Shown here piece by piece: positions 1-12,417 of a stretch of 13,451 nucleotides of DNA (positions are counted from its first letter, which is position 1; the number at the start of each line of letters is the position of its first letter). The notes below the pieces were generated by a model. That model worked only from the letters and a program-made list of their open reading frames with translations. It made no database searches and had not been told where the DNA came from. A program made the translations under genes and the position numbers. This DNA comes from Byssovorax sp. (GTDB lineage Bacteria; Myxococcota_A; Polyangia; Polyangiales; Polyangiaceae), in NCBI GenBank assembly GCA_046351295.1, contig JAXLYT010000035.1, positions 1 to 13,451 of the forward strand, in the 5' to 3' direction.

Positions 1-680
1 CAGTGCACCACATGATACCCACCCCGCGCCTTCACCTGCTCCTTGAGCCGCGCCCGCGTCACCCCGTGACACAGCACATCCACCTCCACGTTCTTCTTCG
101 GCAGCACCTCCCCGAAGAACAGGTCGAGGAGCCGCTCCCGCTCCAGCCGCGCCGCGAGCGGCCGCGCCTCCGGCGCCTCCGCGAACACCAGGAGCACCCG
201 CACCGGCTCCTCCTTCTCCACCCGGATCGCCGCCTCCCTCCCCGGCGCGACCCCGGCCGGCGCCGCCCGCACCACCAGGTTCTTCCCGAGCAGCGTCGCC
301 TCCTCCCCCGGCGCCCGCGCCATCTCCCAGGGCACGCGCGCAAACGCCGCCGCCAGCCAGTCCTCCTTCGGATCGGGCAACCGCACCAGCACCGTCCGCT
401 GGTCGATCCCCTCGGCCAGCACCCGCGCAATCTCGCCCCCGAGCACATGCTCCCCGAGGAAGCCCCCGAGCTCCACGAGCTGCTCCGCCGGCTCCTTCGC
501 CCACCAGAGCCGCCGCACATGCCGCCGCGTATCGAACAGTCCCGACCAGAACGAAGGCCGATGCTTGTCGACCTCCACCTCGTGCGCCCCGAGGTGCCGC
601 CCCGCTTCATCGGCGAGCCGCAGCACCGCCCGCCGCTTCTCGGCGTCCGTCTCGACATCCAGCGTGAACAGCGTGCTCAT
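1..680 (-). CDS. CHAT-domain (caspase/HetF-like) protease family protein, N-terminal 226 codons; 3' end lies beyond the window start
   Basis: This gene is missing from the ORF track because it runs off the window edge. Reading the reverse complement from the ATG (complement of 678-680) gives an uninterrupted 226-codon frame down to position 3, with G/C-rich third positions. The translation runs MSTLFTLDVETDAEKRR...ARVPWEMARAPGEEATLLGKNLVVRAAP...RLERERLLDLFFGEVLPKKNVEVDVLCHGVTRARLKEQVKARGGYHVVH-. The 'LPWE..L ... vvR' segment and the '..TRA.L.....G.YHVVH' ending, which is cut just before the expected 'FxGHG' histidine motif, resemble CHAT domains. An in-frame TGA at the complement of 723-725 bounds the N-terminus. 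GGGAGG sits 4 nt upstream of the ATG. The + ORF 3..734 and - ORF 59..658 in the track are Arg/Pro-rich artefacts of other frames. Confidence 0.55.
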   Translation of the reverse strand, partial: MSTLFTLDVETDAEKRRAVLRLADEAGRHLGAHEVEVDKHRPSFWSGLFDTRRHVRRLWWAKEPAEQLVELGGFLGEHVLGGEIARVLAEGIDQRTVLVRLPDPKEDWLAAAFARVPWEMARAPGEEATLLGKNLVVRAAPAGVAPGREAAIRVEKEEPVRVLLVFAEAPEARPLAARLERERLLDLFFGEVLPKKNVEVDVLCHGVTRARLKEQVKARGGYHVVH

Positions 681-682
681 CC

Positions 683-700
683 GGCCTCCCAGGGGAGGCC
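683..700 (-). promoter_or_regulatory. Perfect palindrome GGCCTCCC-AG-GGGAGGCC overlapping the Shine-Dalgarno of the CHAT gene; it could be an SD-sequestering hairpin or an inter-cistronic stem-loop
   Basis: The 8-bp arms are exact reverse complements. On the mRNA the 3' arm carries the GGGAGG ribosome-binding site just upstream of the ATG at 680. The same CCTCCC/GGGAGG arm sequences recur in the palindromes at 1177-1200 and 1278-1301. Confidence 0.35.
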
Positions 701-748
701 CAGCGTACACGAAACGGAGCGCTCAGCGGGGTGAAGCGCCGCCGAGCC

Positions 749-1111
749 TCACGGCGAAGGCAGCAGCACCTTCCGGATCTTCGCGGCCAGCTTCTCGGCG
801 TGCTGCGCGTCGTCGATGAAGAGCACCTCTTCGTACCAGACATTGAGCGTGTCGACATCCGACAGCGATCGCAGCTTCTCCCGAAGGCCCGCATCGACCG
901 TGCCCAACCAGCGGCTGAGGAGCCGGATGATCGTCTCGGCGAAGACCTTGGCCTCGCCCTTGGTCTCGCCCTTCGCGAAAATTTCCTGGTACAGCGTGCT
1001 TGCCATGAGCTCTGTCTCGCTAATGTAGGCCTTCATGGCCCGGACGGGAACATCTTCTGCTTCGGCGACGCGCCGTAACACGGCCAGGTGGTCGGCTTTC
1101 CACCTGACCAT
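749..1111 (-). CDS. DUF4351 domain protein, a stand-alone or truncated C-terminal module of the Rpn/YhgA-like PD-(D/E)XK putative transposase family
   Basis: This is an ORF-track ORF. The C-terminal ~85 aa read ELMASTLYQEIFAKGETKGEAKVFAETIIRLLSRWLGTVDAGLREKLRSLSDVDTLNVWYEEVLFIDDAQ. They fit the G-x3-G-x3-G ... RLL.R.FG ... L..LS...L..W...L pattern of DUF4351. No upstream nuclease domain is present, and the reading frame is closed beyond 1111. The gene is visibly less GC-rich than its neighbours, with AAA, TTA, GAA, GAT and GTT codons. An alternative start is the ATG at the complement of 1034-1036 (95 aa). Neither start has a convincing SD. Confidence 0.6.
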   Translation of the reverse strand: MVRWKADHLAVLRRVAEAEDVPVRAMKAYISETELMASTLYQEIFAKGETKGEAKVFAETIIRLLSRWLGTVDAGLREKLRSLSDVDTLNVWYEEVLFIDDAQHAEKLAAKIRKVLLPSP

Positions 1112-1165
1112 TGGTCACATCTTCGGAGCCCGGTCATCCGACCGCTCGTACGGCCCTGCCGGAAA

Positions 1166-1200
1166 CCCCACCCCAACCCCTCCCCGCATGCGGGGAGGGG
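1166..1200. repeat. REP-like palindromic element, copy 1 (ccccaccccaa + perfect 24-bp palindrome CCCCTCCCCGCATGCGGGGAGGGG)
   Basis: Positions 1177-1200 are an exact palindrome (12-bp arms). The element is preceded by the C-rich flank ccccaccccaa. A second copy lies in inverted orientation at 1273-1315. Confidence 0.7.
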
Positions 1201-1272
1201 CAGCAATTGCCTATTTTTAAGCGCTTTGCTCTTCCAGGCGCGTCCTGCCAACCCCTGCCCTTTCAACAAGAT

Positions 1273-1315
1273 CCCCTCCCCTCCCCGCTCGCGGGGAGGG
1301 GCTGGGGGTGGGGTC
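1273..1315. repeat. REP-like palindromic element, copy 2, in inverted orientation (CCCCTCCCCG-ctcg-CGGGGAGGGG followed by ctgggggtgggg)
   Basis: A 10-bp perfect stem with a 4-nt loop at 1278-1301. The 3' flank ctgggggtgggg is the reverse complement of the copy-1 5' flank. Together the two copies bracket an AT-richer 72-bp segment (1201-1272) that contains a TATTTTT run. Confidence 0.7.
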
Positions 1316-1333
1316 TAGCAGCGCGCCCCTCAC

Positions 1334-1448
1334 AAATCCCCGAGGTTTTGGAGATCTGATGGAGCGTCAGCTTGCACGCGGAAAGGGGCCGGGGGTGAGG
1401 TTTTGGGCAGCGATCTCCCGCGAAATCCCCGGCGTTTTGGAGATGTGG
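1334..1448. repeat. Two ~27-bp direct repeats (AAATCCCCGrsGTTTTGGAGATsTG) about 89 bp apart, plus a third GAGGTTTTGG copy and a GGAGATC/GATCTCC inverted repeat
   Basis: Positions 1334-1362 and 1423-1448 match at about 22 of 26 positions. The 10-mer GAGGTTTTGG occurs at 1342-1351 and again at 1397-1406. GGAGATC at 1353-1359 is the reverse complement of GATCTCC at 1412-1418. The stretch is non-coding, since every frame gives Arg/Pro-rich nonsense. Confidence 0.6.
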
Positions 1449-1606
1449 CCAATGATCAGCTTTCAACGCGGGGCTCAAGTCCGTCCGCCGCGCGATGGCG
1501 TCGCGGGCCTGATGCGCCGCATCCTTGGTCGCCTCGTCGGCCGTGAGCGCCACGAGCGGTCCCAGCATACCCTGGCCCACCGGCCGCCCTGCATCGCCGA
1601 TCGCCA

Positions 1607-1906
1607 CCTCGAAACGCCCCCGGAGCACCGCCGGCTGGCCTCCACGCGCCTCGAAACGCCTCCCGCACGCCCCTGCAAGAGCCCACCGCCGCCTCGAAAC
1701 GCCTCCCGCACGCCCCTGCAAGAGCCCATGGCCGCCTCGAAATGCCCGCCGCACGCCCCGGCAAGGACTGCCCCGTGCCTCGAAATGCTCGCTGCGCGCC
1801 CCGGCGCGGGCTGCCCTCAACCTCGAAACGCTCTCCGCGCGCCCCTGCAAGGGTCGCCCTGCGCCTCGAACCGCCCTCCCGGCACCACGGCAGCGCCGAT
1901 CGCCCG
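1607..1906. repeat. Tandem array of 43-bp repeats, 7 copies, consensus CCTCGAAACGCCTCCCGCACGCCCCTGCAAGAGCCCACCGCCG; a non-coding minisatellite
   Basis: CCTCGAAA/CCTCGAAC recurs at 1607, 1649, 1692, 1735, 1778, 1821 and 1864, giving periods of 42 or 43 bp. Copies 2 and 3 are nearly identical and the outer copies are diverged. The period is not a multiple of 3 and there are no unique spacers, so this is neither coding nor a CRISPR array. A shorter ~20-bp x3 repeat (..CCGGCAGCC..) follows at 1901-1961. Confidence 0.8.
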
Positions 1907-2081
1907 CCCGGCAGCCCCGCCGCCCGTCCGGCAGCCCTCCGCGGCCTCCCGGCAGTCTCCGCCGTCCGTCCAGCCCGTTCCGCCGGCCGCTGGGGGCCCC
2001 TCCACCGGCACCCCGGCCTGCCTCGTCCGGCCGAAAATCCCAACCCCGCGCAAATTTTGTGCGCCTGGGCTCACCCGGTCG

Positions 2082-2111
2082 TTGACGAAGAAATTGCGAA
2101 ATTGCTAGGCT
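2082..2111 (+). promoter_or_regulatory. Candidate sigma-70-type promoter for the histone-like/Fic gene: TTGACG-N18-TAGGCT, with the spacer containing the direct repeat AAATTGCGAAATTGC
   Basis: TTGACG lies at 2082-2087 and TAGGCT at 2106-2111 (spacer 18 nt), within the only AT-richer stretch upstream of the ATG at 2197. An imperfect palindrome GCGCAAATTTTGTGCGC lies just upstream at 2048-2064. This is a weak, sequence-only call. Confidence 0.2.
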
Positions 2112-2196
2112 CTGCCGCGGCTGCACTGACTCGCTGTCCAGCTTGACAGGCACACCGTTCCGTAGTTGGCCCCGAGCGACGGATGGATCTCGGCCC

Positions 2197-3804
2197 ATGG
2201 CGGCAAAAAAATCCAAGAAACCCAAGCAAAAGGCCCCGAAGCGTGCCGCGAAGCCGGCGCGCCCCACGACCCGCGCGGCCAAGAAGAAGGCCGTGGCGCG
2301 CGCCAAGCCGGCGGTGAAGAAGGCCGCCCCCAAGAAAGCCCCGAAGCCGAAGCGTCCGGCCGCGAAGAAGGCCGTGAAGAAGGCGGTCGTCAAGAAGGCC
2401 GCCGCGAAGAAGAAGGCCGTCGTCAAGAAGGCCGCGCCGAAAAAGGCGGCGGTGAAGAAGGGCCCGGTCAAGAAGGCCCTCGCCCGGAAGCCCGCGCCCA
2501 AGGCGCCGGTGAAGAAGGCGGCCCCGAAGAAGGCTGAAAAGCCCGCCAAGAAGGCCCTCAAGAAGGCCGAAAAGCCGGTCAAGAAGGCCCCGAAGGCCGA
2601 AAAGCCGGTCAAGAAGGCCGAGAAGCTCGTCGAGAAGGCTTCGAAGAAGGCTGAAAAGCCGGCGAAGAAGGCCGAGAAGGTCGTCGAGAAGGCCCCGAAG
2701 AAGGTCGAGGTGCCGGCCAAGAAGGGGGCGCTCGCCAAGGCGCCGCCTTCGAAGCCGGTCGCGCCGCCTTCGAAGAAAGGGCTGCCGGAGGCCCGGCCGT
2801 CGGCGGGCAAGCGGCCCGTCCCGGCGCCGCCCGTCTCGGCCCCGAAGAAGAGCAGCCCCGGCAAGGAAGCGCCGCCCGCCAGGCGGAGCGACCGGCCCAT
2901 GGAGGCCGCGGGGAAGAAGCGCAGCTCGGCGCCGCCTCCGCCCGCCAAGGGCGGCAAGAAGGGGGCGCCCCTCGCTCCCGTGCGCGAGCCCCCGCCTCGC
3001 CTCGTCACCCTGCCCCTGCCCACGCTCCAGGCGCCCAAACGCCCCAGCGTGGAAGAGCGCTCGGCGTCGATCGAGAAGCGCCTCGCCGGCCAGACGGACG
3101 ACTTCCGCAAGCGCTACCTCGACAGCCTCGATATGTCGTGGATTTACCACGACAGCGCGCTCGAAGGGACCGTCTACACCTTCGAAGAGCTGCGCGCCGG
3201 CTTCTCCGGCCAGCCCCAGCCCATCACCGACTCGAACCTCCAGCCGACCTTCGAGGACATCCGGCGGCACAAGGAGGCCATCGAGTACGTCCGCGATTTC
3301 GGCGAGAAAAAGCGGCTCCCCGTCACGGTCGACGTGATCAAGAAGATCTACCTCATCCTCCACCCGGAGGAGGGCGACATCAAGACCGTGAAGTACCGGA
3401 AGGACATCCCCCAGCATCGCCTCTACTTCCACGAGTACGCCCCGCCGGACAAGATCGCCTACAAAGTCCGGCAAATCGTGGACTGGCTGAACGACCCGGA
3501 GACGCGCAAGACGCGCAACGGCATCCGCATCGCCGCCCGCGCGCACTACGATCTGCTCCGCGTCTACCCCTTCCCCACCGACAGCGGGAAGACGGCGCGC
3601 CTGTTCATGAACTTGCTGCTGCTGCGGAGCGGATTGCCGCCGGCGATCCTCCACTCCACGGAGCGGCAGCGCTACTACGAGGCCCTGAAGGGCTCGGCCA
3701 CCACGGTGCTCCAGATGGTGCAAGAGGCGGTGGAGAACGCCCTCTCCAGCGTCGAAAAGCTCCTCGATGAGCACGAAACGAAGAAGCGCGCCTTCGTCTC
3801 CTGA
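2197..3804 (+). CDS. Fusion protein: N-terminal histone H1-like Lys/Ala/Pro-repeat (AKKA/KKAEKPVKKA) domain joined to a C-terminal Fic/Doc-family domain with a degenerate active-site motif
   Basis: A single 535-codon frame opens at ATG 2197; the track extends it upstream to TTG 2143. Residues 1 to ~290 are K/A/P-rich repeats of the histone H1 / Hc1 / AlgP type, encoded by AAG-rich near-tandem 33-36-nt nucleotide repeats around 2530-2700. The C-terminal ~230 aa carry Fic-fold signatures. SWIYHDSALEGTVYT resembles Fic 'iyhSnaIEGN'. HYDLLRVYPFPTDSGKTARLFMNLLLLRSGLPPAIL aligns to HPFx(D/E)GNGRxxRLlmnllLlraGyPp, but with His->Tyr, D->T, G->D, N->S and R->K. This is followed by ERQRYYEAL. The stop is TGA at 3802-3804. 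Confidence 0.75.
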   Translation: MAAKKSKKPKQKAPKRAAKPARPTTRAAKKKAVARAKPAVKKAAPKKAPKPKRPAAKKAVKKAVVKKAAAKKKAVVKKAAPKKAAVKKGPVKKALARKPAPKAPVKKAAPKKAEKPAKKALKKAEKPVKKAPKAEKPVKKAEKLVEKASKKAEKPAKKAEKVVEKAPKKVEVPAKKGALAKAPPSKPVAPPSKKGLPEARPSAGKRPVPAPPVSAPKKSSPGKEAPPARRSDRPMEAAGKKRSSAPPPPAKGGKKGAPLAPVREPPPRLVTLPLPTLQAPKRPSVEERSASIEKRLAGQTDDFRKRYLDSLDMSWIYHDSALEGTVYTFEELRAGFSGQPQPITDSNLQPTFEDIRRHKEAIEYVRDFGEKKRLPVTVDVIKKIYLILHPEEGDIKTVKYRKDIPQHRLYFHEYAPPDKIAYKVRQIVDWLNDPETRKTRNGIRIAARAHYDLLRVYPFPTDSGKTARLFMNLLLLRSGLPPAILHSTERQRYYEALKGSATTVLQMVQEAVENALSSVEKLLDEHETKKRAFVS

Positions 3805-4603
3805 GCGCCGCGGCCCTCGCGCCGCGGCCCCAACCGCGCGCGTGAGCAAGCGGAAGACGGTTGCGTCGTCCGCGGCGACCACCGGTGCTTCCAGCCGTCG
3901 TCCCAGGCGAGCCAAGCCGGCCCCGAAGAATCGGCCCCGGGACGAGGCGCGGCCGACCTATGCGCGCCTGCGCCTCCTGTACCCCGACGCCCATTGCGAG
4001 CTCATCCACGCGGACTCGTTCACGCTCCTCGTGTCGACGGTCCTCAGCGCGCAGACGACGGACGTCCTCGTCAACAAGGTCACCCCCCACCTGTTCGCGC
4101 GCTGGCCCACCGCCAAGGCCCTCGGCGCGGCCGATCCTTCCGACGTCGCCGCCCTCCTCGCCGAGCGCGGGATGGGCATGTACAACCAGAAGGCGAAGAA
4201 CATCGTCGGCCTGAGCCGTCTCTTGATGGAGAAGCACGGCGGCCATGTCCCCCGCACCCTGGCCGAGCTCGTCGAGCTGCCCGGCGTCGGCCGGAAGACG
4301 GCCAACGTCGTCCTCGGCGTCGCCTTCGGGATGCCCGAGGGCGTCGTCGTCGACACCCATGTCCAGCGCCTGAGCCAGCGCCTCGGCTGGACGAAGCAGA
4401 CGGAGCCGGGGCCGATCGAGCAAGACCTGTGCGCCCTCTTCCCCCGCGAAGACTGGGACATGCTCTCCCACACGCTCATCTTTCATGGCCGCCGCACCTG
4501 CACGGCCCTTCGCCCGGCGTGTGCGGCGTGTGGTGTGAATGACGCGTGCCCGAGCGCCTTCAAGGCCGAAAACGTGGGCCGAAAGAAAGGGCGAGTCCGG
4601 TGA
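3767..4603 (+). CDS. nth: Endonuclease III (DNA-(apurinic or apyrimidinic site) lyase / thymine glycol glycosylase)
   Basis: The HhH-GPD motif is LVELPGVGRKTANVVL, with its catalytic Lys. The conserved Asp is in VVVDTHVQRL. A C-terminal [4Fe-4S] ligand set C-x6-C-x2-C-x5-C is present (CTALRPACAACGVNDAC). The protein is colinear with E. coli Nth from RPTYARLRLLYPDAHCEL onward. If ATG 3767 is the start there is a ~60-aa basic N-terminal extension and a 38-nt overlap with the upstream gene. GTG 3842 is an alternative start. Neither has a clear SD. Confidence 0.9.
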   Translation: MSTKRRSAPSSPERRGPRAAAPTARVSKRKTVASSAATTGASSRRPRRAKPAPKNRPRDEARPTYARLRLLYPDAHCELIHADSFTLLVSTVLSAQTTDVLVNKVTPHLFARWPTAKALGAADPSDVAALLAERGMGMYNQKAKNIVGLSRLLMEKHGGHVPRTLAELVELPGVGRKTANVVLGVAFGMPEGVVVDTHVQRLSQRLGWTKQTEPGPIEQDLCALFPREDWDMLSHTLIFHGRRTCTALRPACAACGVNDACPSAFKAENVGRKKGRVR

Positions 4604-4752
4604 TGTGCCGCTGCCCCGGCCATCCCGCCGACGGATCAGCACAACAAACAGCACCGCGACCGGTAGGGAGCGGACCGAGCAGGCATTACCTGCAAGGAAG
4701 CAACCACGTCGAGAGCCGAGGCCAAGTCGCTCGCGGATCGGCCTGGGCGGGG

Positions 4753-4870
4753 CGGTGCTTGCGGGTGGCGTGGGAGATGACGGGGGCCGGTGGCTGCGCG
4801 GTCCGCTCCCTGCCGGTCGCGGTGCTGTTCCTGGTGGCGTGGGAGATGACGGGGGCCGGTGGCTGTGCGG
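4753..4870. repeat. Two copies of a ~50-bp direct repeat (CGGTGCT..GGTGGCGTGGGAGATGACGGGGGCCGGTGGCTGyGCGG) in the uvrA leader
   Basis: The copies at 4753-4801 and 4818-4870 are near-identical over ~38 bp at their 3' ends, with a period of ~67 bp. They end 20 bp before the uvrA ATG. No LexA-type palindrome was recognised within them. Confidence 0.7.
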
Positions 4871-4893
4871 GGGGGGTGGGTGAGGTTTTATGA
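4777..4893 (+). CDS. Possible 38-aa upstream ORF / leader peptide (MTGAGGCAVRSLPVAVLFLVAWEMTGAGGCAGGVGEVL) whose stop overlaps the uvrA start as ATGA
   Basis: It is in frame with the track ORF 4546..4893. Third codon positions are nearly all G/C. The TGA at 4891-4893 overlaps the uvrA ATG at 4890-4892. The peptide repeats the WEMTGAGGCA motif because it spans the DNA direct repeat. It has no good SD, since GGGAG directly abuts the ATG, so the call is speculative. Confidence 0.2.
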   Translation: MTGAGGCAVRSLPVAVLFLVAWEMTGAGGCAGGVGEVL

Positions 4894-7775
4894 AACGGTC
4901 GTCTCTGCGTCGTGTGGCTGCGAAGGAGCCGGATTTCATCGAGGTGATTGGCTCGAAGGAGCACAACCTCGCGATCGAGCACCTCGAGATACCCAAGAGG
5001 CAGCTCGTGGTGTTCACGGGGGTCAGCGGGTCGGGCAAGTCGAGCCTCGCGTTCGATACGCTCTATGCCGAGGGGCAGCGGCGGTATGTCGAGACGCTGA
5101 GCGCGTATGCCCGGCAGTTCCTCGGGCAGCTCGAACGGCCGCATGTCGACCACCTGCGGGGGCTTTCGCCGACGATCGCCATCGAGCAGAAGAGCGCGTC
5201 GGGCAACCCCCGGTCGACGGTGGGCACCATCACGGAGATCTACGATTATCTCCGCGTGCTCTATGCCCGCGTGGGCGAGCAGTATTGCCACCTCTGCGGG
5301 GAGAAGGTCACGGCCCAGAGCTCGGACCAGATCGTCAAGGAGATCCAGGCCCTTCCCCAGGGCACGAAGCTCACGATGGTGGCGCCCCTCGTCAGCCATC
5401 GGAAGGGCGAGTTTCGCGATCTGTTCGAGGAATTGCGCGGTCGAGGCTTTGCGCGGGTCGTCGTCAACGATGTGACCTACAAGCTCGATGAGGTGCCGAA
5501 GCTCGACAAGAAGAAGAAGCACACCATCTGGCTCGTGGCCGATCGGATCACCGTCTCTCCGGAGGATCGCGGGCGCATCGCCGAGAGCGTCGAGGTCGCG
5601 CTCAAGGAGGGCAAGGGCGAGATGCGCGCGCTCTTCAGCGACGGCAAGCGCGAGCCCTTGGTGTTCAGCGAGCTGCGCACCCACTGCGGGCACAGCTTCC
5701 CGGCCCTCTCGCCGCAGAGCTTCTCGTTCAACAGCCCGCTCGGCATGTGCAGCGAGTGCAACGGCCTCGGCACAAGGCTCGAGGTCGATCCCGAGCTCAT
5801 CGTCCCCGATCCTTCGCTGTCCATCCGTGACGGCGCCATCGCCCCGTGGGCGTCGGGCATGGCCCGCGGCGAGGGGTGGACGTTCCGCATCGCCGACGCC
5901 GTGGCCAAGGCATGCGCCGTCAAGCTCGACACGCCCTGGAACAAGCTCCCCAAGTCGAAGCAGGACCGGGTGCTCTACGGCCTCGAAGGCGAGCGGATCA
6001 GCGTCCAGTGGGGCAAGGAAGGGTCGGAGAGCCATGGCACCTTCGGGATGCGCTTCGAGGGCGTGATCCCGAACCTGATGCGCCGCTATCGCGACACCAC
6101 CTCCGAGCAGGCCCGCGAGCACTACCGCGTCTTCATGAGCGAGCGCCGCTGCGACACCTGCGGCGGCAAGCGCCTGCGCCCCGAGACGCTGGCCGTGAAG
6201 CTCGCGAAGAAGAGCATCGCCGATGTCACCGCCTTCACCGTGCGCGAGGCGGCGGCACACATGGCCTCGCTCGGCCTCGAAGGCGCCCAGCAGACGATCG
6301 CCGCCGGCGCGCTGCGGGAGATCGAGGCGCGCCTCTCGTTCTTGCTCAACGTCGGCCTCGATTACCTCACCCTCGAACGCAGCGTGCCCAGCTTGAGCGG
6401 CGGTGAGGCCCAGCGCATCCGCCTCGCGAGCCAGCTCGGGAGCGAGCTCTCGGGCGTGATGTACGTGCTCGACGAGCCGAGCATCGGCCTGCACCAGCGG
6501 GACAACCAGCGCTTGATCGAGACCTTGCGCCGCCTGCGCGATCTCGGCAACAGCGTCGTGGTCGTCGAGCACGACGAGGAGACCATCCGCGCGGCCGATC
6601 ACCTCGTCGATTTCGGCCCGGGCGCCGGCCACCTCGGCGGCAAGGTCATGTACAGCGGCCCCCCCGAGGGCATCGAGAAGGATCCGACGAGCCTGACGGG
6701 GGCCTACCTCTCGGGGAAGAAGAAGATCGATCTGCCCAGCTCGCGCCGCACCGCCAAGGGAGCGCTCAGCATCCTCGGCGCCCGGGAGCACAACCTCAAG
6801 AACATCGATGTTCGCTTCCCGCTCGGCGTGCTCACCGCCGTCACCGGCGTGAGCGGCGCCGGCAAGAGCTCGCTCGTCAATGGCATCCTCCTGCCGGCCC
6901 TCGGCAAGGCGCTTTATCAAGCCAAGGACCCGGTGGGCGCCCACCGCCGCATCGATGGGCTCGACTCCATCGACAAGGCCATCGCCATCGATCAGAAGCC
7001 CATCGGCCGCACCCCGCGATCGAACCCCGGCACGTACACCAAGGCCTTCGACCTCATCCGCGACATCTTCGCCGAGCTGCCCGAGTCCCGCGCGCGGGGC
7101 TTCAATGGCGGGCGATTCTCCTTCAACGTCAAGGGAGGACGCTGCGAGTCGTGCCACGGCGACGGCGTGGTCAAGGTGGAGATGCACTTCCTCGCCGACG
7201 TGTACGTGCCCTGCGAGGTGTGCGAGGGAAAGCGCTACAACGCCCAGACCTTGAGCGTGCGCTTCAAGGGCAAGAACATCGCCGAGGTGCTCGACTCGAG
7301 CGTCGATGATTGCCTGGCGATGTTCTCCTCGTTCCCTGCCCTCCGGCGCGTCCTTCAAACCCTCTCCGACGTGGGCCTCGGCTACATGAAGATCGGCCAG
7401 AGCGCGCCCACGATGAGCGGCGGCGAGGCCCAGCGGGTGAAGCTCTCGCGCGAGCTCGGCAAGACGCAGACGGGCAAGACGTTCTACGTGCTCGACGAGC
7501 CGACGACGGGCCTGCACTTCGAGGACATCCACAAGCTCCTCCTCGTGCTGCAAAGGCTCGTGGACGCCGGCAACTCCGTGGTGGTGATCGAGCACAACCT
7601 CGATGTCATCAAGTGCGCCGACTGGATCATCGACCTCGGCCCCGAGGGCGGCGGAGGCGGCGGGCGGATCATCGCCGAGGGGACGCCCGAGCAGGTGGCG
7701 AAGGTCGAGGGCTCGTACACCGGGCAATTCCTCGCGCCGCTGCTCGGAAGGAAGCGGGGGCGCGCGGCGAGCTGA
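4890..7775 (+). CDS. uvrA: Excinuclease ABC subunit A
   Basis: 961 aa with two ABC ATPase modules. The Walker A motifs are GVSGSGKSSLAF and GVSGAGKSSLV. The ABC signatures are LSGGEAQRIRLA and MSGGEAQRVKLS. The Walker B motifs are YVLDEPS and YVLDEPT. The Cys pairs of the UvrA zinc modules are CHLCGEK, CSECNGLG, CDTCGGKR, CESCHGDG and CEVCEGKRY. The SD is GAGG 4-5 nt before the ATG. The frame is uninterrupted. Confidence 0.97.
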   Translation: MKRSSLRRVAAKEPDFIEVIGSKEHNLAIEHLEIPKRQLVVFTGVSGSGKSSLAFDTLYAEGQRRYVETLSAYARQFLGQLERPHVDHLRGLSPTIAIEQKSASGNPRSTVGTITEIYDYLRVLYARVGEQYCHLCGEKVTAQSSDQIVKEIQALPQGTKLTMVAPLVSHRKGEFRDLFEELRGRGFARVVVNDVTYKLDEVPKLDKKKKHTIWLVADRITVSPEDRGRIAESVEVALKEGKGEMRALFSDGKREPLVFSELRTHCGHSFPALSPQSFSFNSPLGMCSECNGLGTRLEVDPELIVPDPSLSIRDGAIAPWASGMARGEGWTFRIADAVAKACAVKLDTPWNKLPKSKQDRVLYGLEGERISVQWGKEGSESHGTFGMRFEGVIPNLMRRYRDTTSEQAREHYRVFMSERRCDTCGGKRLRPETLAVKLAKKSIADVTAFTVREAAAHMASLGLEGAQQTIAAGALREIEARLSFLLNVGLDYLTLERSVPSLSGGEAQRIRLASQLGSELSGVMYVLDEPSIGLHQRDNQRLIETLRRLRDLGNSVVVVEHDEETIRAADHLVDFGPGAGHLGGKVMYSGPPEGIEKDPTSLTGAYLSGKKKIDLPSSRRTAKGALSILGAREHNLKNIDVRFPLGVLTAVTGVSGAGKSSLVNGILLPALGKALYQAKDPVGAHRRIDGLDSIDKAIAIDQKPIGRTPRSNPGTYTKAFDLIRDIFAELPESRARGFNGGRFSFNVKGGRCESCHGDGVVKVEMHFLADVYVPCEVCEGKRYNAQTLSVRFKGKNIAEVLDSSVDDCLAMFSSFPALRRVLQTLSDVGLGYMKIGQSAPTMSGGEAQRVKLSRELGKTQTGKTFYVLDEPTTGLHFEDIHKLLLVLQRLVDAGNSVVVIEHNLDVIKCADWIIDLGPEGGGGGGRIIAEGTPEQVAKVEGSYTGQFLAPLLGRKRGRAAS

Positions 7776-7791
7776 GGGCGGCGCGCGGGCG

Positions 7792-7825
7792 GGGCCCGGC
7801 CTTGCGGTCGACCTCGGGCCGGGCG
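7792..7825 (+). terminator. GC-rich hairpin (GCCCGGCC ... GGCCGGGC, 16-nt loop containing GGTCGACC) downstream of uvrA, with a weak T-tract (CGTTTTG) 8 nt later
   Basis: The inverted repeat is 7794-7801 against 7817-7824. The U-tract is neither immediately adjacent nor long, so this is at best a weak intrinsic terminator or an RNA-stabilising stem-loop. Confidence 0.3.
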
Positions 7826-7860
7826 TAGGATCGTTTTGCGCTCCAGCCAGGAGGGCGACG

Positions 7861-8712
7861 ATGCGAACAAGACGGTGGGTGCTCCTCTCCACGGCGGCGA
7901 TCGCGCTGGGGCTCTCGGCCGGACCCCGGGCGACGGCCCAGATCCGGGACAGCGAGGTGCTCGGGCCATCCCTGTCTCCAGGGAAGGTGAAGCTCACGTG
8001 CCGGGGGATGGGGGCCACCAACATGATGGATTGCGCGTTCCAGCTCGACCCGGGCAGGAAGCAAGCCACTGCCCCCCGTCACGATCCGTGTCGATCCAGG
8101 CACGCTCGCCTATGCCTCCGATCACGCCGCCGCAGAACATGGTCGTCGGCGGCGTGGAGGGCCGGCTCACGGATGGGTTCGGCGTCCTCGCGCCGCCTCT
8201 GGGAGACGGCCCGCCCGCGCTCCTCGCGTCCCCGTTGCCCGGGCGCCGCCGCTTCAGGCCGGATGATCAGCGTCGTCCCGAGCCCGGTGATCACGGTGTC
8301 GAGCACGACGCCTGTCCACTACGTGCTCGGGGTGTACTGCGCCGAGTTCGAGAAGGACAACCCCTCTTCGGACGTGACCTTCACCTTCGGCAAGGTCGAT
8401 CCGGTGCTGGCATGCATCACCGAGACGGCCGCGCGCTTCGAGGGCCGGACCATCCAGGCCGCGGTGTGGATCAAGACGGACTTCCGGGACGTGGAGCCGG
8501 CGCTCGCCCACAAGACCATCGACAAGAAATACCCGCTGTCCAACCGGGAGGGGCGGACGCGCTCGGCGTCGCGGGTGAGCTGCGGCGTCCTCGGGAAAGA
8601 GGCCGTGAACGCCCTCCCCGAGGCGGATGCCGCGGCCTCTCCGGCGTCTCGGATGCCGCCTCCCCTGCCGCCCGGGGGCTGCTGCGGAGGCCCCTCCGCG
8701 GCGGCGCGATGA
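7861..8712 (+). CDS. Secreted hypothetical protein (signal peptide MRTRRWVLLSTAAIALGLSAGPRATA|Q); frame integrity questionable in the middle third
   Basis: SD GGAGGG lies 5 nt before ATG 7861, which opens a typical Sec signal peptide. The frame with codon starts = 1 mod 3 looks coding at 7861 to ~8060 and from ~8290 to 8712. The downstream stretch reads PVHYVLGVYCAEFEKDNPSSDVTFTFGKVDPVLACITETAARFEGRTIQAAVWIKTDFRDVEPALAHKTIDKKYPLS. Between ~8062 and ~8135 that frame turns Arg/Ser-rich (RHDPCRSRHARLCLRSRRRR) and its third positions fall mainly on A/T. Between ~8140 and 8270 the position-specific GC pattern, with the second codon position lowest, fits the 0 mod 3 frame better (MPPITPPQNMVVGGVEGRLTDGFGVLAPPLGDGPP...). 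I recognised no family. Confidence 0.4.
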   Translation: MRTRRWVLLSTAAIALGLSAGPRATAQIRDSEVLGPSLSPGKVKLTCRGMGATNMMDCAFQLDPGRKQATAPRHDPCRSRHARLCLRSRRRRTWSSAAWRAGSRMGSASSRRLWETARPRSSRPRCPGAAASGRMISVVPSPVITVSSTTPVHYVLGVYCAEFEKDNPSSDVTFTFGKVDPVLACITETAARFEGRTIQAAVWIKTDFRDVEPALAHKTIDKKYPLSNREGRTRSASRVSCGVLGKEAVNALPEADAAASPASRMPPPLPPGGCCGGPSAAAR

Positions 8713-8715
8713 TGG

Positions 8716-10968
8716 ATGTCTCGCCGAGGCGACAGCCCTGAAGACCTCCTCTCGCGCGGGCGCGCGGCGCTCCGGCAGGGCCGCGCCGAGGAGGCGCGCG
8801 CGGCGTTCGAGGCGGTCCTCCGCCTGCGCCCGACCCTCGCGGAGGGCCACCTCGGGCTCGGCCGGGCGCTTGTCCGGCTGGTCGTGATCGAGGCGGCGCG
8901 CTCATCTTCTTCCAGCGCGCCGCGCGCCTCGGCGCGGAGAGCGCGCGCCTGTCGTTCGAGGCCTTGCCGGAGGCCCCGCCCCGCCGGGATTTCACGATCG
9001 GGCAGTCGATCCGGGGCGAGGCCACGGGCATTCGCTACACGGTGCGCGACATCAGGCGCGGGACGTTCGGCGCCGTCTACCTGGTCGACGACGACCGGAG
9101 CGCGCCCCATGCCCTCAAGACCTTCCAGGCTCGCCATTCGTGGAGCGACGACGATCGCCGCCGCTTCGAGCGGAGGCGCTCACCTGGGTCAACCTGGATC
9201 ACCACCCTCATATCGTCTGGGCCAGGTGGATGGAGGTCATCGAAGGGTTCTTGTGCCTCGTGCTCGAGCAGGTGCCCGGCGGCGATCTCGGAGGGCTCCT
9301 GGCCGCCCGAGGCCCTTTGCCCGCGGGCCGGGCGCTCTCGCTCGCCCTCGATCTCTGCGACGCGATGGCCCATGCCCATGATCGATCCGGCGTCGTCCAC
9401 CGGGACATCAAGCCGTCGAACTGCCTGCTGACCGTCGAGGGGCGCCTGAAGATCGGCGATTTCGGCCTCGCCCGCGCCTTCGGCGAGAGGGGCCATGGCC
9501 CCGGCGCCGCCCCGACCGGCGAGCCCTGCTCGACCACGCCGGCCGGATCGCTCCCGTACATGGCCCCGGAGCAGCACGACCGCGCGGCCATCCTCGACAC
9601 GCGCGCGGACATCCACGCGCTCGGCGTGATGCTCTACGAGATGCTCACGGGCGATCGCCCCCTCTCGGGCAGCAGGGCAGAGGCCCATGTCCTCGCCGGC
9701 GCCGCGCGGCGCTCGATCCCTCCCGCGCTCGCAGACGCCTTGCTCCACCTCGTCGCTCGATCCCCGGCCGATCGCCCGCCCGATTTCGATCGAGCGAGGG
9801 AGATGCTCACCCCCATCGCCGCCGCGCTCGGGGCCCGCCCGGCGCCGCGGGCGAAGGCGATCGTCATGGGCCCCGACGATCTGAAGAACAAGGCCATCGC
9901 GCTCGTCGCCCTCCGCCGCGACGAGGAGGCGCTCGCCTGCTTCGAGGAGGCGCTCGCGCGCTCGCCGGACGACGCCGCCCTCTGGAAGGGCGCCGGCGTG
10001 GCCCACCACGCCCTCGGCCGCTACACGGAGGCGCTCCGCTGCCACCGCAGGGGCCTCGCGATCGCCCCCGGTGACCCGGGGCTGTGGAACAACATGAGCC
10101 TCACGGAGCGCGCGCTCGGCAATGTGGACGCCGCCCTGGCATGCTGCGCAGAGGGGCTTTCGCGCGCGCCCCGCGATCCGAAGCTGCTCGGCAACCAGGG
10201 TGAGCTGCTGCACTCGAGAGACGATCTCGCCGGGGCGCTCTCTTGCTACGACGCCGCCTTGGCCGTCGTGCCGGGCGACACCGACCTGGAGGGGAAGAGG
10301 GGGTATGTGCTGCTCGACCTCGGCCGCCACGAGGAGGCCGGAGCATGCTTTGAAGCGGCGCTCGCCGTCACGCCGCGCAGCGCCGCGCTGTGGCGAGGCC
10401 TCGGCGCCGCGTGGCACCGGCGCGGCGCCTGCGAGCAGGCCGTCCGCTGCTACCGCTACGCCGCCGAGATCGATCCTCGTAGGGCCGATGTCCACCGGAT
10501 GCTCGGCCAGGCCCTGCTCTCGATCGGACGGCCCGAAGAGGCCCTCGCCGCGCTCGAGCAGGCCATCGATGTCTCTGCCTCCGATCGCGAAGCCCACGTG
10601 GCGATGGCCGCGGCGCTGAGCGTCCTCGGCCGCCTCGAAGAGGCCTGCGCGCGCTCATGCGCGCCACGCCGATCTCGGCCCGCCGGACGAGGACCTGTGC
10701 CTCGGGGCCGTGCTCCACCGGCTCGGGCGGCTGGAAGAGGCGCTGCGCTGGTCGGCGCGAGGGGCGGCCCTCGCGCCGGCCAACCCCTGGTTGCAGGAGA
10801 ACCTCGGTCATATCCCTGACCGCGCTCGGCCGGCTCGACGAGGCGCTGGCCGAGATCGAGCGAGGGGCCGAGATCGACCCGGACAACGCGGGGATACGGG
10901 AGCTGCGAGCCCGGCTGCTCGAACGCCTGGGCAAGGCCGATGAAGCGATGGATCGACGGCAGCGCTGA
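8716..10968 (+). pseudogene. Ser/Thr protein kinase (Hanks type) with one N-terminal and ~10 C-terminal TPR repeats, interrupted by at least four single-nucleotide frameshifts; either an authentic pseudogene or indel errors in the sequence
   Basis: Coding segments occupy different frames. (a) 8716 to ~8895, frame 1 mod 3: MSRRGDSPEDLLSRGRAALRQGRAEEARAAFEAVLRLRPTLAEGHLGLGRAL (TPR). (b) ~8895 to 9172, frame 0: ALIFFQRAARLGAES...DFTIGQSIRGEATGIRYTVRDIRRGTFGAVYLVDDDRSAPHALKTF...DDDRRRFER (Gly-loop and VAIK Lys). (c) 9173 to ~10650, frame 2: EALTWVNLDHHPHIV...HRDIKPSNCLL...DFGLAR...YMAPEQ, then about 10 TPRs. (d) ~10660 to 10810, frame 0: DEDLCLGAVLHRLGRLEEALRWSARGAALAPANPWLQENLG. (e) ~10815 to 10968, frame 1: SLTALGRLDEALAEIERGAEIDPDNAGIRELRARLLERLGKADEAMDRRQR. 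At 9171-9176 the sequence reads CGGAGG; restoring one G (CGGGAGG) gives FEREALTWVNLDH, so one G appears to be missing there. The start codon is 4 nt after the stop of the upstream gene (TGAtggATG). Confidence 0.7.
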
Positions 10969-10978
10969 CACCGCGCGC

Positions 10979-11266
10979 TCAACGGGCGGGCGGCCGGAGG
11001 CTCACGTCTCCCACGTCACCCAGGAACGCAGCCCAGGGATAAGGGTGCTCTCCGCACCCGAGGATCCTCGGCTCGCGTTCCTCCGCCGCATGCCTGCGAC
11101 ACCACGCGACGAGCCTCTTGCTCGACCCATCGAAGGTGAAGAGGACGACCGGCCGATCCAGCGTCGTCTGCCAGCCTTCCCACACCCCCACATGATCCCG
11201 CTCGTGCTGGAGCTGAATGAGGACGAATTGATCCCCGATCCGATCGCCGGTCGAAGGGCTCTTCAT
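10979..11266 (-). CDS. Hypothetical 95-aa protein (MKSPSTGDRIGDQFVLIQLQHERDHVGVWEGWQTTLDRPVVLFTFDGSSKRLVAWCRRHAAEEREPRILGCGEHPYPWAAFLGDVGDVSLRPPAR)
   Basis: A strong RBS, AGGAGG, lies 6 nt upstream of the ATG (complement of 11264-11266). The start overlaps the stop of the upstream TonB-like gene as ATGA, which indicates translational coupling. The track's 130-aa version, starting at 11371, has an Arg-rich N-terminus that overlaps the upstream gene and is implausible. A competing frame (track 11002..11193) has similar GC3 over the last ~25 codons, so the C-terminus is uncertain. I recognised no family. The gene converges on the kinase gene with a 10-bp gap. Confidence 0.5.
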   Translation of the reverse strand: MKSPSTGDRIGDQFVLIQLQHERDHVGVWEGWQTTLDRPVVLFTFDGSSKRLVAWCRRHAAEEREPRILGCGEHPYPWAAFLGDVGDVSLRPPAR

Positions 11267-12102
11267 GGCTGACCTCCTGCGTAGAGGTTGATGGAGAACG
11301 GGAGATTGACGATCACGCTCTGGCCGCCGAACGGCGCCACGCGCGCCGCCGCGAACGCGCTCGCGAGGCACCTGCGCCCGGGCCCGAAGAACGGCCCCTG
11401 GAGCCCCACGGAGACGGCCTTGCCGCTGGACGGCCGGAACGTGACCCTCGCGCTGCCATGCCCGGCGGCGCCGTCGAGCACCTTGCAGCGCCGCGCGGCC
11501 CCCAGGGCGCGCGCCATGGCCTGACCGGCGCGCTCGGTCGTCAGCTCGGCCTCGACCCGGGCCGCCGGGGGGCGAAGCGCCGGCGCCGGGCTCACGGGCG
11601 CGTCCTTCGCGCTCACGGGCGCGTCCTTCGCGCTCGCGGGCGCGTCCTCGGGCGCGCTCGTCTCGGCGCTCGGCTTCCTCTCCAACACGGCCGGAGCGCC
11701 GATGTCCACGGGCTCGGGCGCGGCGCGCGCCGCCTCTTCTGAAGCCTCGCGCGGCCTTTCCAGCTCATGACGGCTGGTCGCGCGAGCGGCCATGGAGACC
11801 GGCGAGGCGACGAGCCAGACGATGAGCGAGAGCACCTGCGCGGTGGCGACGAAGGCGCCGAGGAGCAGGGCGATCTCTGCCCGGCGGATCGGCCTCGGCG
11901 CGGGCGCCTCGCCGCCCTTCAGCTGGGCCAGGAGCCAGTGCTCTTCGAGCCCTCCCTTGAGGTTCTCGATCTCGATCAGCGTGTTGCGCCCCCGGACGCC
12001 CGCGAAACCTCCGGGCGGCGCGGTGGGACCGCGGCCGGCATGCGAGCCTCTGCGCGAGCCATCCAGGTGATGCTCCTCCGCCTGTGTCGGGTGCATGGAC
12101 AT
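11263..12102 (-). CDS. Membrane-anchored protein with a TonB_C-like / myxobacterial AgmX-PglI-type C-terminal domain; the layout is an N-terminal cytoplasmic segment, one TM helix, a Pro/Ala-rich linker and a Cys-containing C-terminal domain
   Basis: 279 codons from the ATG at the complement of 12100-12102. The RBS GGAGAGGAGGAG lies directly upstream, and a second ATG 6 nt downstream is an alternative start. The predicted TM helix is IALLLGAFVATAQVLSLIVWLVA. The linker carries (S)AKDAPV 7-aa tandem repeats. The C-terminal domain reads AELTTERAGQAMARALGAARRCKVLDGAAGHGSARVTFRPSSGKAVSVGLQGPFFGPGRRCLASAFAAARVAPFGGQSVIVNLPFSI. It contains the two-Cys pattern of the myxobacterial AgmX/PglI-type C-terminal domain, and the stretch G..ARVTFRP.SGKAVSV...CL..AFAAARVAPF resembles the periplasmic C-terminal domain of TonB. 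The part of the track ORF 11263..12630 upstream of 12102 is antisense to the bEBP gene and Arg-rich, so I reject it. Confidence 0.55.
   Translation of the reverse strand: MSMHPTQAEEHHLDGSRRGSHAGRGPTAPPGGFAGVRGRNTLIEIENLKGGLEEHWLLAQLKGGEAPAPRPIRRAEIALLLGAFVATAQVLSLIVWLVASPVSMAARATSRHELERPREASEEAARAAPEPVDIGAPAVLERKPSAETSAPEDAPASAKDAPVSAKDAPVSPAPALRPPAARVEAELTTERAGQAMARALGAARRCKVLDGAAGHGSARVTFRPSSGKAVSVGLQGPFFGPGRRCLASAFAAARVAPFGGQSVIVNLPFSINLYAGGQP
11591..11653. repeat. 21-bp tandem repeat x3 (CTCACGGGCGCGTCCTTCGCG) inside the linker of the TonB-like gene, encoding AKDAPVS heptad repeats
   Basis: Two perfect copies lie at 11591-11611 and 11612-11632, followed by a degenerate third copy. The repeats keep the reading frame, since 21 is divisible by 3. 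Confidence 0.6.
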
Positions 12103-12220
12103 ACTCCTCCTCTCCGGCCGGAACGAGGTCCGCGCGCGCCGGCATACCCGCTCACCTCGCCGGTGAGCGCTGCCTCGGCGCCGGTCGGTGTCTCGGCTGC
12201 TCCAGCCTGTCGAGGGCATG

Positions 12221-12236
12221 AGCAGCCGGCGTGCCA
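12221..12236 (-). promoter_or_regulatory. Sigma-54 (RpoN) -24/-12 promoter driving the TonB-like / small-protein operon
   Basis: The minus-strand sequence (reverse complement of 12221-12236) is TGGCAC-GCCGG-CTGCT. It matches TGGCAC at -24 exactly and has CTGC at -12 against the consensus TTGC, with canonical GG-N10-GC spacing. It lies ~120 nt upstream of the ATG at 12102 and is oriented toward it. An FHA-domain sigma-54 activator gene is transcribed divergently ~180 bp away. Confidence 0.5.
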
Positions 12237-12309
12237 CGCGCCATGGCGCCGGCCAATGGCTGAAAACAAGCCTGTCCAGCGCGCGGGCGCACCCCCGGAC
12301 GGGCCCTCC

Positions 12310-12389
12310 TGCGCATCTGCGCAATTGCGCGAGCGCGCGATCCGCGGCGATCGCGGCCCCTTGCGCGCCCTTGCGCGCCGCGCGATCCT
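12310..12389. promoter_or_regulatory. Cluster of GC-rich palindromes and short tandem repeats, a candidate enhancer (UAS) / operator region between the sigma-54 promoter and the bEBP gene
   Basis: Three tandem TGCGCRnn octamers lie at 12310-12333. They include the perfect 12-bp palindrome GCGCAATTGCGC at 12319-12330. An imperfect palindrome CGCGATC-CGCGGC-GATCGCG lies at 12336-12355. The tandem 10-mer CCTTGCGCGC occurs twice at 12358-12377, and GCGCGATCC is repeated at 12335 and 12380. The cluster lies 75-170 bp upstream of the -24/-12 element, which is the usual distance for bEBP binding sites. Confidence 0.35.
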
Positions 12390-12417
12390 TCCGCCTTGCA
12401 GGTAAGGAGACAACGTG

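Follow-up and report, generated by a model that had tools for sequence, protein, structure and literature searches.

A conserved Fic-fold domain lacking the catalytic histidine, joined to a lysine-rich tail in Byssovorax sp. and its Polyangiaceae relatives

Research on Fic domains has concentrated almost wholly on their enzymatic side (AMPylation and similar transfers), for the most part in pathogens and in the protein FICD. Here we analysed a 13,451-nucleotide (nt) stretch of Byssovorax sp. (Polyangiaceae, Myxococcota; assembly GCA_046351295.1, contig JAXLYT010000035.1, positions 1 to 13,451 of the forward strand), called the window below. One of its genes (2197 to 3804; this gene, its parts and the named genes downstream of it are on the plus strand) encodes a 535-residue protein composed of a basic tail, a Pro-rich linker and a Fic-fold domain devoid of the catalytic His. 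The notable object is the deep, selected, His-less Myxococcota Fic clade to which this domain belongs; the histone H1-like tail and the nth (endonuclease III) neighbourhood belong to one branch of it.

In canonical Fic proteins the signature is HxFx(D/E)GN(G/K)RxxR, in which we number the Gly and Arg positions in order of appearance. The His deprotonates the target hydroxyl, the Asp/Glu holds Mg2+, and contacts to the alpha- and the beta-phosphate come from the Asn and Arg1, respectively (PMC3667792). The described proteins closest in sequence and structure to the window domain are FICD/HYPE, C. elegans Fic-1 and Bacteroides BT_2513 (PDB 3cuc), with E=2e-18 and template modelling (TM) scores of 0.71-0.78. 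They have in common with it the helical core, a Glu-Gly helix of putative inhibitory type at the N-terminal side, the AxxHY helix preceding the loop, the LxxNxxLxxxGxPP helix and the R..YY helix. Unlike this group, however, the window protein has replaced the His, the Mg-binding Asp, Gly1, the Asn and Arg1, has no tetratricopeptide repeat (TPR) domain and carries an invariant sequence of its own at the flap position, and its identity to the group is only ~21-26%.

The Bartonella protein BepC has a Fic domain with a non-canonical motif and binds GEF-H1, no enzymatic activity having been detected, and Bep8 bears the non-canonical motif PFxxGNE (PMC8401265); AvrB belongs to the Fido superfamily (PMC2686095). 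As in these three proteins, whose function is binding and not AMP transfer, the Fic fold is kept here and the signature departs from the consensus. They are, however, secreted, host-targeted effectors of pathogens, derived from toxin-antitoxin systems, whereas the window clade is chromosomal, stands in a housekeeping context and belongs to free-living soil bacteria. Furthermore, BepC keeps the His and the Beps keep PFxxGN, whereas the window clade has neither His, Gly1 nor Asn, and no BID or secretion domain. Replacement of the essential His together with conservation of the variant motif has a parallel in clade D2 of the Doc proteins, 45 sequences in which the His is replaced by Gln (Khater and Mohanty 2015, PMC4454073). 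Variant motifs retained by selection were suggested there to have other functions (PMC4454073), and Goepfert et al. likewise predicted new functions for degenerated Fic motifs (PMC3667792). Clade D2 differs in lying on the Doc branch, in having no tail, and in its motif, Qx[FY]x[DE][GV]NKR, which keeps the acid, the Asn and the Lys-Arg; it is not FICD-like.

For the tail, a parallel in layout is Streptomyces DdbA, in which N-terminal Lys/Ala-rich H1-like repeats are also fused to a folded regulatory domain; by itself, the H1-like part is sufficient for binding and condensation of DNA in vitro (PMC3643593). Its partner domain is DksA-like, however, and its tail of ~93-138 amino acids (aa) is made of (S/T)(A/T)AKK pentapeptides, versus 281 aa here. 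In AlgP and PhaF the K/P/A tails are DNA-binding and serve to attach granules to the nucleoid (PMC9239181), and the repeat number of chlamydial Hc2 varies between strains (PMC2848022). The window tail shares with these proteins K/P/A repeats (disordered, by prediction here), a large positive charge (+55 in AlgP) and an H1-tail-like composition, and one relative (locus L038) uses AKKPAAKKPV units. The tails of AlgP and PhaF (Pseudomonas, KPAA repeats) are C-terminal, whereas the window tail is N-terminal; the attached domains are unrelated, and AlgP sits on polyphosphate granules. Finally, CccR, which has a canonical motif and AMPylates FtsZ with H192 being essential (PMC9755527), resembles the window protein, as do SoFic-type proteins, in joining a Fic domain and a DNA-binding part (putative here) in one polypeptide. 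In both CccR and the SoFic type the motif is canonical and active and this part is a folded helix-turn-helix, sequence-specific in CccR, whereas the window tail is a predicted disordered polycation and its Fic part has no His.

The Fic fold and its replaced active site

The C-terminal domain (residues 282-535, with the fold from residue 285; 3040 to 3801) is assigned to the Fic domains, probably to the class II, FICD-like type, by Pfam, by its match to FICD and by structure prediction. PF02661 matches residues 376-475 with 39.8 bits (cut-off 24; E=8.3e-10; profile positions 2-93 of 93), and the best solved structures by sequence are those of human FICD and C. elegans Fic-1 (E ~2e-18). An AlphaFold2 (AF2) model of residues 282-535 reached a predicted local distance difference test score (pLDDT) of 81.9 and a predicted TM score of 0.84, and Foldseek matched it with probability 1.00 to FICD structures and 3cuc, at the TM scores given above. 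The Fic fold proposed in an initial annotation of the window is thus supported by a profile search above its cut-off and by a model that matches FICD structurally.

The alignment with FICD and Fic-1 sets the active-site loop YPFPTDSGKTAR (residues 457-468; 3565 to 3600) exactly on HPFtDGNGRtaR. Indeed, the FICD-like alignment pairs rvYPFptdsGktaRlfmnllllrsglpp with lvHPFtdgnGrtaRlllnlimmrsgfpp, and the three elements initially read as parts of a kept Fic scaffold, SALEGT, LFMNLLLLRSGLPP and ERQRYYEAL, fall on FICD VAIEGN, LLLNLIMMRSGFPP and (T)RAEYYASL. Five loop positions are substituted (His to Tyr, Mg-binding Asp to Thr, Gly1 to Asp, Asn to Ser and Arg1 to Lys), and the Pro, the Phe, Gly2 and Arg2 are retained; the replacement of the catalytic His by Tyr and of the nucleotide-binding residues, claimed at the outset, is therefore borne out by the FICD alignment. 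No other H-x-F or GN[GK] occurs anywhere in the window protein, and the placement of the active site stands, a canonical motif being absent from the rest of the protein. Profile and predicted fold place the protein in the Fic/Fido superfamily. Since it departs from the signature HxFx(D/E)GN(G/K)RxxR at five specified positions, the invariant His among them, it ought not to be classed among the Fic AMPylases. A Doc toxin was also considered and rejected, as HxFx(D/N)(A/G)NKR is absent and the best matches are FICD-like, not Doc.

Two further segments of the domain can be placed by the FICD alignment. HDSALEGT (3148 to 3171) is the putative counterpart of the FICD inhibitory helix HTVAIEGN: Glu323-Gly324 are kept, and the Ser/Thr at position -4 is Asp. 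In the family the H, D, A and G of HDSALEGT are invariant and the E nearly so. At the position of the flap that docks the target in Fic proteins lies YRKDIPQHRLYFHEY (residues 400-414; 3394 to 3438), a family-specific, near-invariant segment recognised by its invariant columns, which reads YRxDxPLHRxYFHE in distant members. Both AF2 models, of the domain and of the full-length protein, give it as low-confidence coil (pLDDT <50). The flap segment is the most conserved stretch of the protein and, in both models, the sole part of the folded domain with so low a pLDDT. Such low confidence would be expected for a segment that becomes ordered upon binding.

Conservation of the His-less clade

With the C-terminal domain as query, 1664 proteins were retrieved at an E-value of 1e-5 or less. 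Identity to it is 70-90% for the best 120 of these, and the named ones are called only "Fic family protein" (Sorangium, Chondromyces, Minicystis, Labilithrix); the motif [YF]PFxx[DE]SG[KR]xxR is found in 118 of these 120, and His in none. An exhaustive HMMER search against 1.84 billion cluster representatives (50%-identity clusters) yielded 3396 matches with E<=1e-3, of which 110 reached E<=1e-30. In the 150 best representatives (E to 1e-23, identity to 27%), every protein that bears the motif has F, Y or W at the His position, save for one A and one M.

Over 364 motif-bearing proteins, the His position is occupied by F in 202, Y in 157, W in 2 and H in none. The Pro, Gly2 and Arg2 are invariant, while the Mg-binding Asp/Glu position takes K, T, E, S, H and others. 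Gly1 is replaced by D (159), N (106) or H (51), the Asn position is S in 338, and the Arg1 position is K in 307 and R in 33, which gives [FY]P[FW]xx[DNH]SG[KR]xxR as the replacement motif of the family. Retention of Tyr by the orthologues, raised as a question in the initial annotation, is therefore only partly observed: His never returns, but Tyr shares the position with the more frequent Phe.

These searches point to a deep, His-less, FICD-like clade that is probably specific to Myxococcota. It comprises at least 110 clusters at 50% identity (E<=1e-30), with relatives in 527 species-level genomes, and most members are stand-alone proteins of ~250-265 aa (Myxococcota, Polyangia and "Deltaproteobacteria" metagenome bins). 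Because the His-less domain is older, far more widespread and mostly stand-alone, the tail cannot explain the loss of catalysis. NCBIfam holds no curated subfamily model for the clade. The architecture had been thought not to be a described family, and our literature search, which was thin on subscription journals, indeed found no description of either the [FY]PFxxxSGKxxR clade or a Fic domain with an H1-like tail.

The domain is under strong purifying selection, above that on UvrA and Nth at the protein level. Compared over the same genome pairs, the Fic domain has a nonsynonymous divergence (dN) of 0.084-0.13, against 0.14-0.23 in uvrA and 0.20-0.26 in nth. The dN values are used relatively, as dN/dS is unreliable with synonymous sites constrained or saturated at 70% GC, and the nth value of one relative (L036) is an alignment artefact. 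Decay into a pseudogene was rejected, with dN below that of uvrA and nth and the frame open in all genomes. Likewise, the term "crippled" first applied to this active site does not hold, given that 364 relatives, down to about 30% identity, conserve the replacement motif and that the domain diverges less than UvrA and Nth; the loop is an alternative motif in a protein of importance to the cell.

The same conservation could mean that the domain is still an enzyme with a rebuilt centre, in which the [FY]PFxx(D/N/H)SGKxxR loop and flap residues Arg401, His407, Arg408, Tyr410 and His412 would catalyse another reaction. Phosphoryl or nucleotidyl transfer via another base, or the removal of a modification, would be the candidate reactions, the tail in Polyangiaceae delivering the enzyme to DNA-bound substrates. 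Extreme conservation of loop and flap, the low dN, and the retention of Gly2, Arg2 and the inhibitory Glu speak for it. So do the phosphocholination and phosphorylation carried out by Fic proteins with deviating motifs and the new functions predicted for degenerated ones (PMC3667792, PMC8401265), as well as the IbpA His-to-Ala mutant, which retained some AMPylation (PMC4454073). However, the base position accepts Phe and Tyr interchangeably, so that the Tyr hydroxyl is no substitute catalytic group, and the position of the Mg-binding acid takes various residues (K, T, E, S, H). Replacement extends to Gly1 and the Asn, both belonging to the PFxxGN core that is described as strictly conserved in BepFIC domains (PMC8401265). 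Moreover, in a deep alignment including distant members the sole invariant loop residues are Pro, Gly and Arg; the loop Ser and Lys vary, which leaves no fixed catalytic dyad and led us to reject a Ser-Lys dyad in the S-G-K loop. We consider a rebuilt enzyme, with any of these candidate reactions, to be doubtful.

The lysine-rich tail and the genomic neighbourhood

The 535-codon frame runs from ATG 2197 to TGA 3802-3804 without in-frame stops. A longer start, TTG at 2143, is available, and ATG 2197 is favoured because several genera share the start peptide MAAKK(T/S)(R/K)K, as read from the open frames in the relatives' DNA. The window has a G+C content of ~70% and long spurious open reading frames (ORFs) on both strands, and the long antisense ORFs over the gene were rejected as GC artefacts. 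The G+C at codon positions 1/2/3 of the whole frame is 0.63/0.46/0.92, and by halves the third-position value (GC3) amounts to 0.91 for the tail and 0.93 for the Fic domain side; tail and Fic part are therefore one continuous gene with no frameshift, in agreement with the same-frame fusion first proposed. Dozens of genomes share this architecture, among them complete records of Sorangium, Minicystis and Chondromyces. A scan for sigma-70 promoters upstream of the gene found none, and Rfam and tRNA scans of the window gave no match.

Could the long tail be untranslated, with the real start near the Fic domain and the upstream frame a GC-rich artefact? Relatives of ~255-290 aa do exist, spurious long ORFs are common in high-GC genomes, and many database entries of close relatives are shorter than the open frame; P0021 (Sorangium sp. 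So ce176), for example, is annotated with 438 aa versus ~659 aa from MAAKKTRK. However, GC3 in the tail is 0.91 in the window and 0.82-0.94 in most relatives, and MAAKKTRK is shared by Sorangium, Polyangium, Chondromyces, Byssovorax and Minicystis, with the shortened form MAAKASPKTSRK in Labilithrix. Furthermore, 164-492 codons stay open in dozens of genomes despite the divergence of their sequence. An untranslated tail thus seems very improbable to us. Database gene models often start downstream of the conserved MAAKK, and the architecture is in consequence partly hidden in annotation. At the Sorangium loci, including that of So ce176 (L010, ~5800-7762), the tails are apparently 5'-shortened in the current annotation.

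The tail begins with MAAKK and comprises a Lys/Ala-rich repeat region, residues 1-180 (2197 to 2736), delimited by composition, tandem repeats and coil prediction. It is followed by a Pro/Ser/Ala-rich linker, residues 181-281 (2737 to 3039), delimited by composition and alignment, which ends in the semi-conserved PPRLVTLPLPTLQAPK (alignment consensus LREPxxRxVxLPLPxxPPP). Of the "about 290 residues" of repeats counted in the initial annotation, ~180 are indeed K/A-rich repeats, but the other ~100 form this linker. Residues 1-281 consist of 28.5% K, 22.4% A and 17.8% P (69% K+A+P), contain no aromatics and have a net charge of +80. The repeat region contributes +63 (37% K, 27% A) and the linker +17 (28% P). 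Tandem Repeats Finder detects DNA tandem repeats over 2358-2725; the youngest, at 2520 to 2725, have 30-54-nt units with 80-90% matches and encode KKAEKP(V/A)KKA-type units.

In the full-length AF2 model residues 1-284 are all coil, with a mean pLDDT of 45-62 in blocks of 10 residues (~45-57 over the repeat region), and the tail is predicted to be intrinsically disordered. The composition first described as that of an H1-like lysine-rich tail is confirmed by the dominance of K, A and P, the high charge and the lack of aromatics. As no Pfam or NCBIfam model matches the tail, "H1-like" refers here to composition and not to demonstrated homology. Together with the precedents cited above, this composition suggests that the tail may bind DNA.

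To follow the tail across relatives, the DNA of 80 genomes was read directly. Polyangiaceae tails (Sorangium, Polyangium, Chondromyces, Byssovorax, Minicystis and related bins) begin with MAAKKTRK and have 164-492 residues, GC3 of ~0.9 and a net charge of ~+33 to +147; Sorangium tails span 353-419 aa and Polyangium tails 339-382, and the Chondromyces tail has 492. Labilithrix-like genomes have only ~40 basic residues (MAAKASPKTSRKEP...KRKL...PPPKPL), and two bins have no tail. The tail DNA is barely alignable even against the closest relatives, and the repeat units differ by lineage, being AlgP-like AKKPAAKKPV in L038 (region 1-1700), SKKGxxPPPS in L044 (5700-7000) and mixed-charge EEKPTKKLRSDAE in L042 (1950-3167), while the L008 tail (5900-7000) is an Arg-rich reading with AKGERL-type units. 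The L008 and L042 tails contain masked N runs. The composition of the tail is conserved and its sequence is not, with a rapid turnover, and repeat number and length vary between relatives as in bacterial H1-like K/A/P tails. On this distribution, the tail is a later addition of the Polyangiaceae lineage.

Downstream of the Fic gene lie nth (3842 to 4603; TIGR01083, 234 bits) and uvrA (4890 to 7775; NF001503, 1390 bits), which confirms the gene order first reported. The possible overlap of the Fic gene with nth, also proposed, was not retained. An in-frame ATG at 3767 would create it, but the nth frame shows no GC3 signal before the probable start, GTG 3842, which stands 37 nt past the Fic stop. 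G+C by position is 0.65/0.85/0.69 over 3767-3844, the 0.85 being that of the Fic frame, and 0.61/0.79/0.82 after GTG 3842; the TIGR01083 match begins at residue 65 of the long nth ORF. No terminator-like site is present in the 37-nt gap, terminator-like matches overall being at chance level, and the gap is compatible with co-transcription of the two genes, which is probable. The window nth has a basic N-terminal extension of ~38 residues (VSKRKTVASSAATTGASSRRPRRAKPAPKNRPRDE; 3842-3958) before the conserved core; a polycationic N-terminus, short in this case, thus occurs in a second gene at the locus.

Across the usable loci, nth follows the Fic gene at 39 loci with a long tail, all of those with room downstream, and is missing at a single long-tail locus, while none of the short-tail loci has it and 23 are without. 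uvrA comes after nth only in the four closest relatives (L003, L004, L005, L036), and upstream synteny is not conserved even among these closest relatives. In the Labilithrix group the downstream gene resembles, by eye, hisF, and further neighbours resemble ychF, a response regulator and an aldo-keto reductase. Distant stand-alone members adjoin PALP, radical-SAM, argH/lysA-like and GTP cyclohydrolase II/5'-nucleotidase genes. The DNA-metabolism context initially suggested thus stands as a hint for nth in the long-tail Polyangiaceae, but not for the distant members, which lie among unrelated metabolic genes, nor for uvrA, limited to four loci.

These data also bear on what the tail binds. The Fic module could be His-less as described and its tail bind polyphosphate or RNA/ribosomes, drive condensates or serve as a spacer, the synteny with nth being incidental. 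AlgP, with a comparable K/P/A tail, does localise to polyphosphate granules (PMC9239181). Only the composition of the tail is conserved, some tails being of mixed charge as in L042; the linkage to nth is absent outside Polyangiaceae, and that to uvrA is found at 4 loci only. However, peptides or domains of such composition bind DNA wherever tested (PMC3643593, PMC9239181), a long tail goes with nth adjacency at 39/40 usable long-tail loci, and the window Nth itself carries a basic extension. A tail with a target or role other than DNA is in our opinion unlikely.

Two other explanations of the locus were considered. A FicTA toxin-antitoxin module (class I) was rejected because the partner gene is missing: no antitoxin-like small ORF with a coding signal adjoins the gene in the window or at the distant loci, and the inhibitory-type helix is intramolecular. 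An anti-phage defence system was set aside as unlikely: PADLOC gave only domain-level, generic Fic matches of 21-50 bits to models (SoFic, PDC-S04) without a stated curated cut-off, and the context is a housekeeping one in all lineages examined.

The rest of the window can be described briefly. Upstream of the Fic gene, ~1.1 kb (1112-2196) shows no clear-cut codon periodicity, and Pfam gives no match for the ORF 1308-2108 within it. This region contains an array of ~6.5 copies of the 43-nt unit CGCCTCGAAACGCCTCCCGCACGCCCCTGCAAGAGCCCACCGC (1604-1891; 79-92% matches), a 21-nt G/C-rich repeat (1888-1968) and two palindromic CCCCTCCCCGC...GCGGGGAGGGG elements (1166-1200 and 1273-1312) with a 35-nt inverted repeat. 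On the minus strand, a gene with a strong coding signal that runs off the left end (3-722; GC3 0.91) has no Pfam or PADLOC match, and a neighbouring 120-aa ORF (749-1111) has a sub-threshold match to DUF4351 (19.5 bits against a cut-off of 25). Beyond nth, a Ser/Thr protein kinase with TPR repeats (9140-10819) and an activator with forkhead-associated and sigma-54 interaction domains that runs off the right end (12406-13449) are signalling genes typical of myxobacteria, and the ORFs 7603-8712 and 11263-12630 have no Pfam match. At three relatives' loci (L015, L028 and L035, ~1-5600; Sorangium, Polyangium, Chondromyces) a same-strand protein of 1700-1870 aa, resembling by eye a Ser/Thr kinase with long TPR-like repeats, lies directly upstream of the Fic gene; it is not upstream in the window.

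Proposed function and significance

We propose that the window protein serves as a tethered binding module, in which the Fic fold would be non-catalytic and the tail would attach it to DNA or to another polyanion, a reading to which we give a probability of about 0.5. That the domain binds rather than modifies is the most economical reading of the sequence data. As the residues that deprotonate the target, bind Mg2+ and contact the alpha-phosphate are lost, the domain has most likely lost the ability to transfer AMP or, for that matter, other groups. The scaffold of the loop is retained through the Pro, the Phe, Gly2 and the pair made up of the last Arg and the Glu of the inhibitory helix. The pocket formed by flap and loop, which would be lined by Arg401, His407, Arg408, Tyr410, His412, Lys465 and Arg468 and hence suited to an anionic ligand or a partner strand, is most likely the docking site for a partner protein or for an anionic ligand. 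Repeat amplification in Polyangiaceae would have lengthened a short basic peptide at the N-terminus into the polycationic K/A/P tail of 164-492 residues. The most likely role of this tail is to anchor the module on a polyanion, for which chromosomal DNA is the leading candidate.

Several points weigh against this proposal. The conservation of the S-G-K-x-x-R loop, with the anion-nest Gly, Arg2, the inhibitory Glu and the flap His and Arg, would also fit a new catalytic centre, and Fic folds with altered motifs do perform other chemistries, such as phosphocholination and phosphorylation (PMC3667792, PMC8401265). Polycationic K/A/P tails also bind polyphosphate and RNA (PMC9239181). Phylogeny confounds the association between long tails and nth, which may go back to one event. 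Finally, distant members have neither tail nor nth, and the core function of the domain is therefore independent of DNA tethering.

Within the proposal of a tethered binding module, a narrower version can be formulated. An undescribed His-less Myxococcota clade, having evolved out of an FICD-like enzyme into a module that binds a ligand or partner, would have become chromatin-associated in Polyangiaceae as the H1-like tail grew, where it would work with endonuclease III, for instance in base excision repair on a compacted nucleoid. We regard this version as quite improbable. At most, the clade would work like the known binding-only Fic domains, and it is not categorically new.

In conclusion, this large, chromosomal and constrained clade offers a natural test case for a Fic fold that no longer transfers a group. 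Its Polyangiaceae branch shows a stepwise build-up of the tail, from ~40 residues in Labilithrix to ~490 in Chondromyces, and this series informs how bacteria with genomes of 10-16 Mb attach proteins to their nucleoid. If the chromatin-associated reading is true, the protein might, for example, recruit or regulate base excision repair on the compacted nucleoid of very large genomes.

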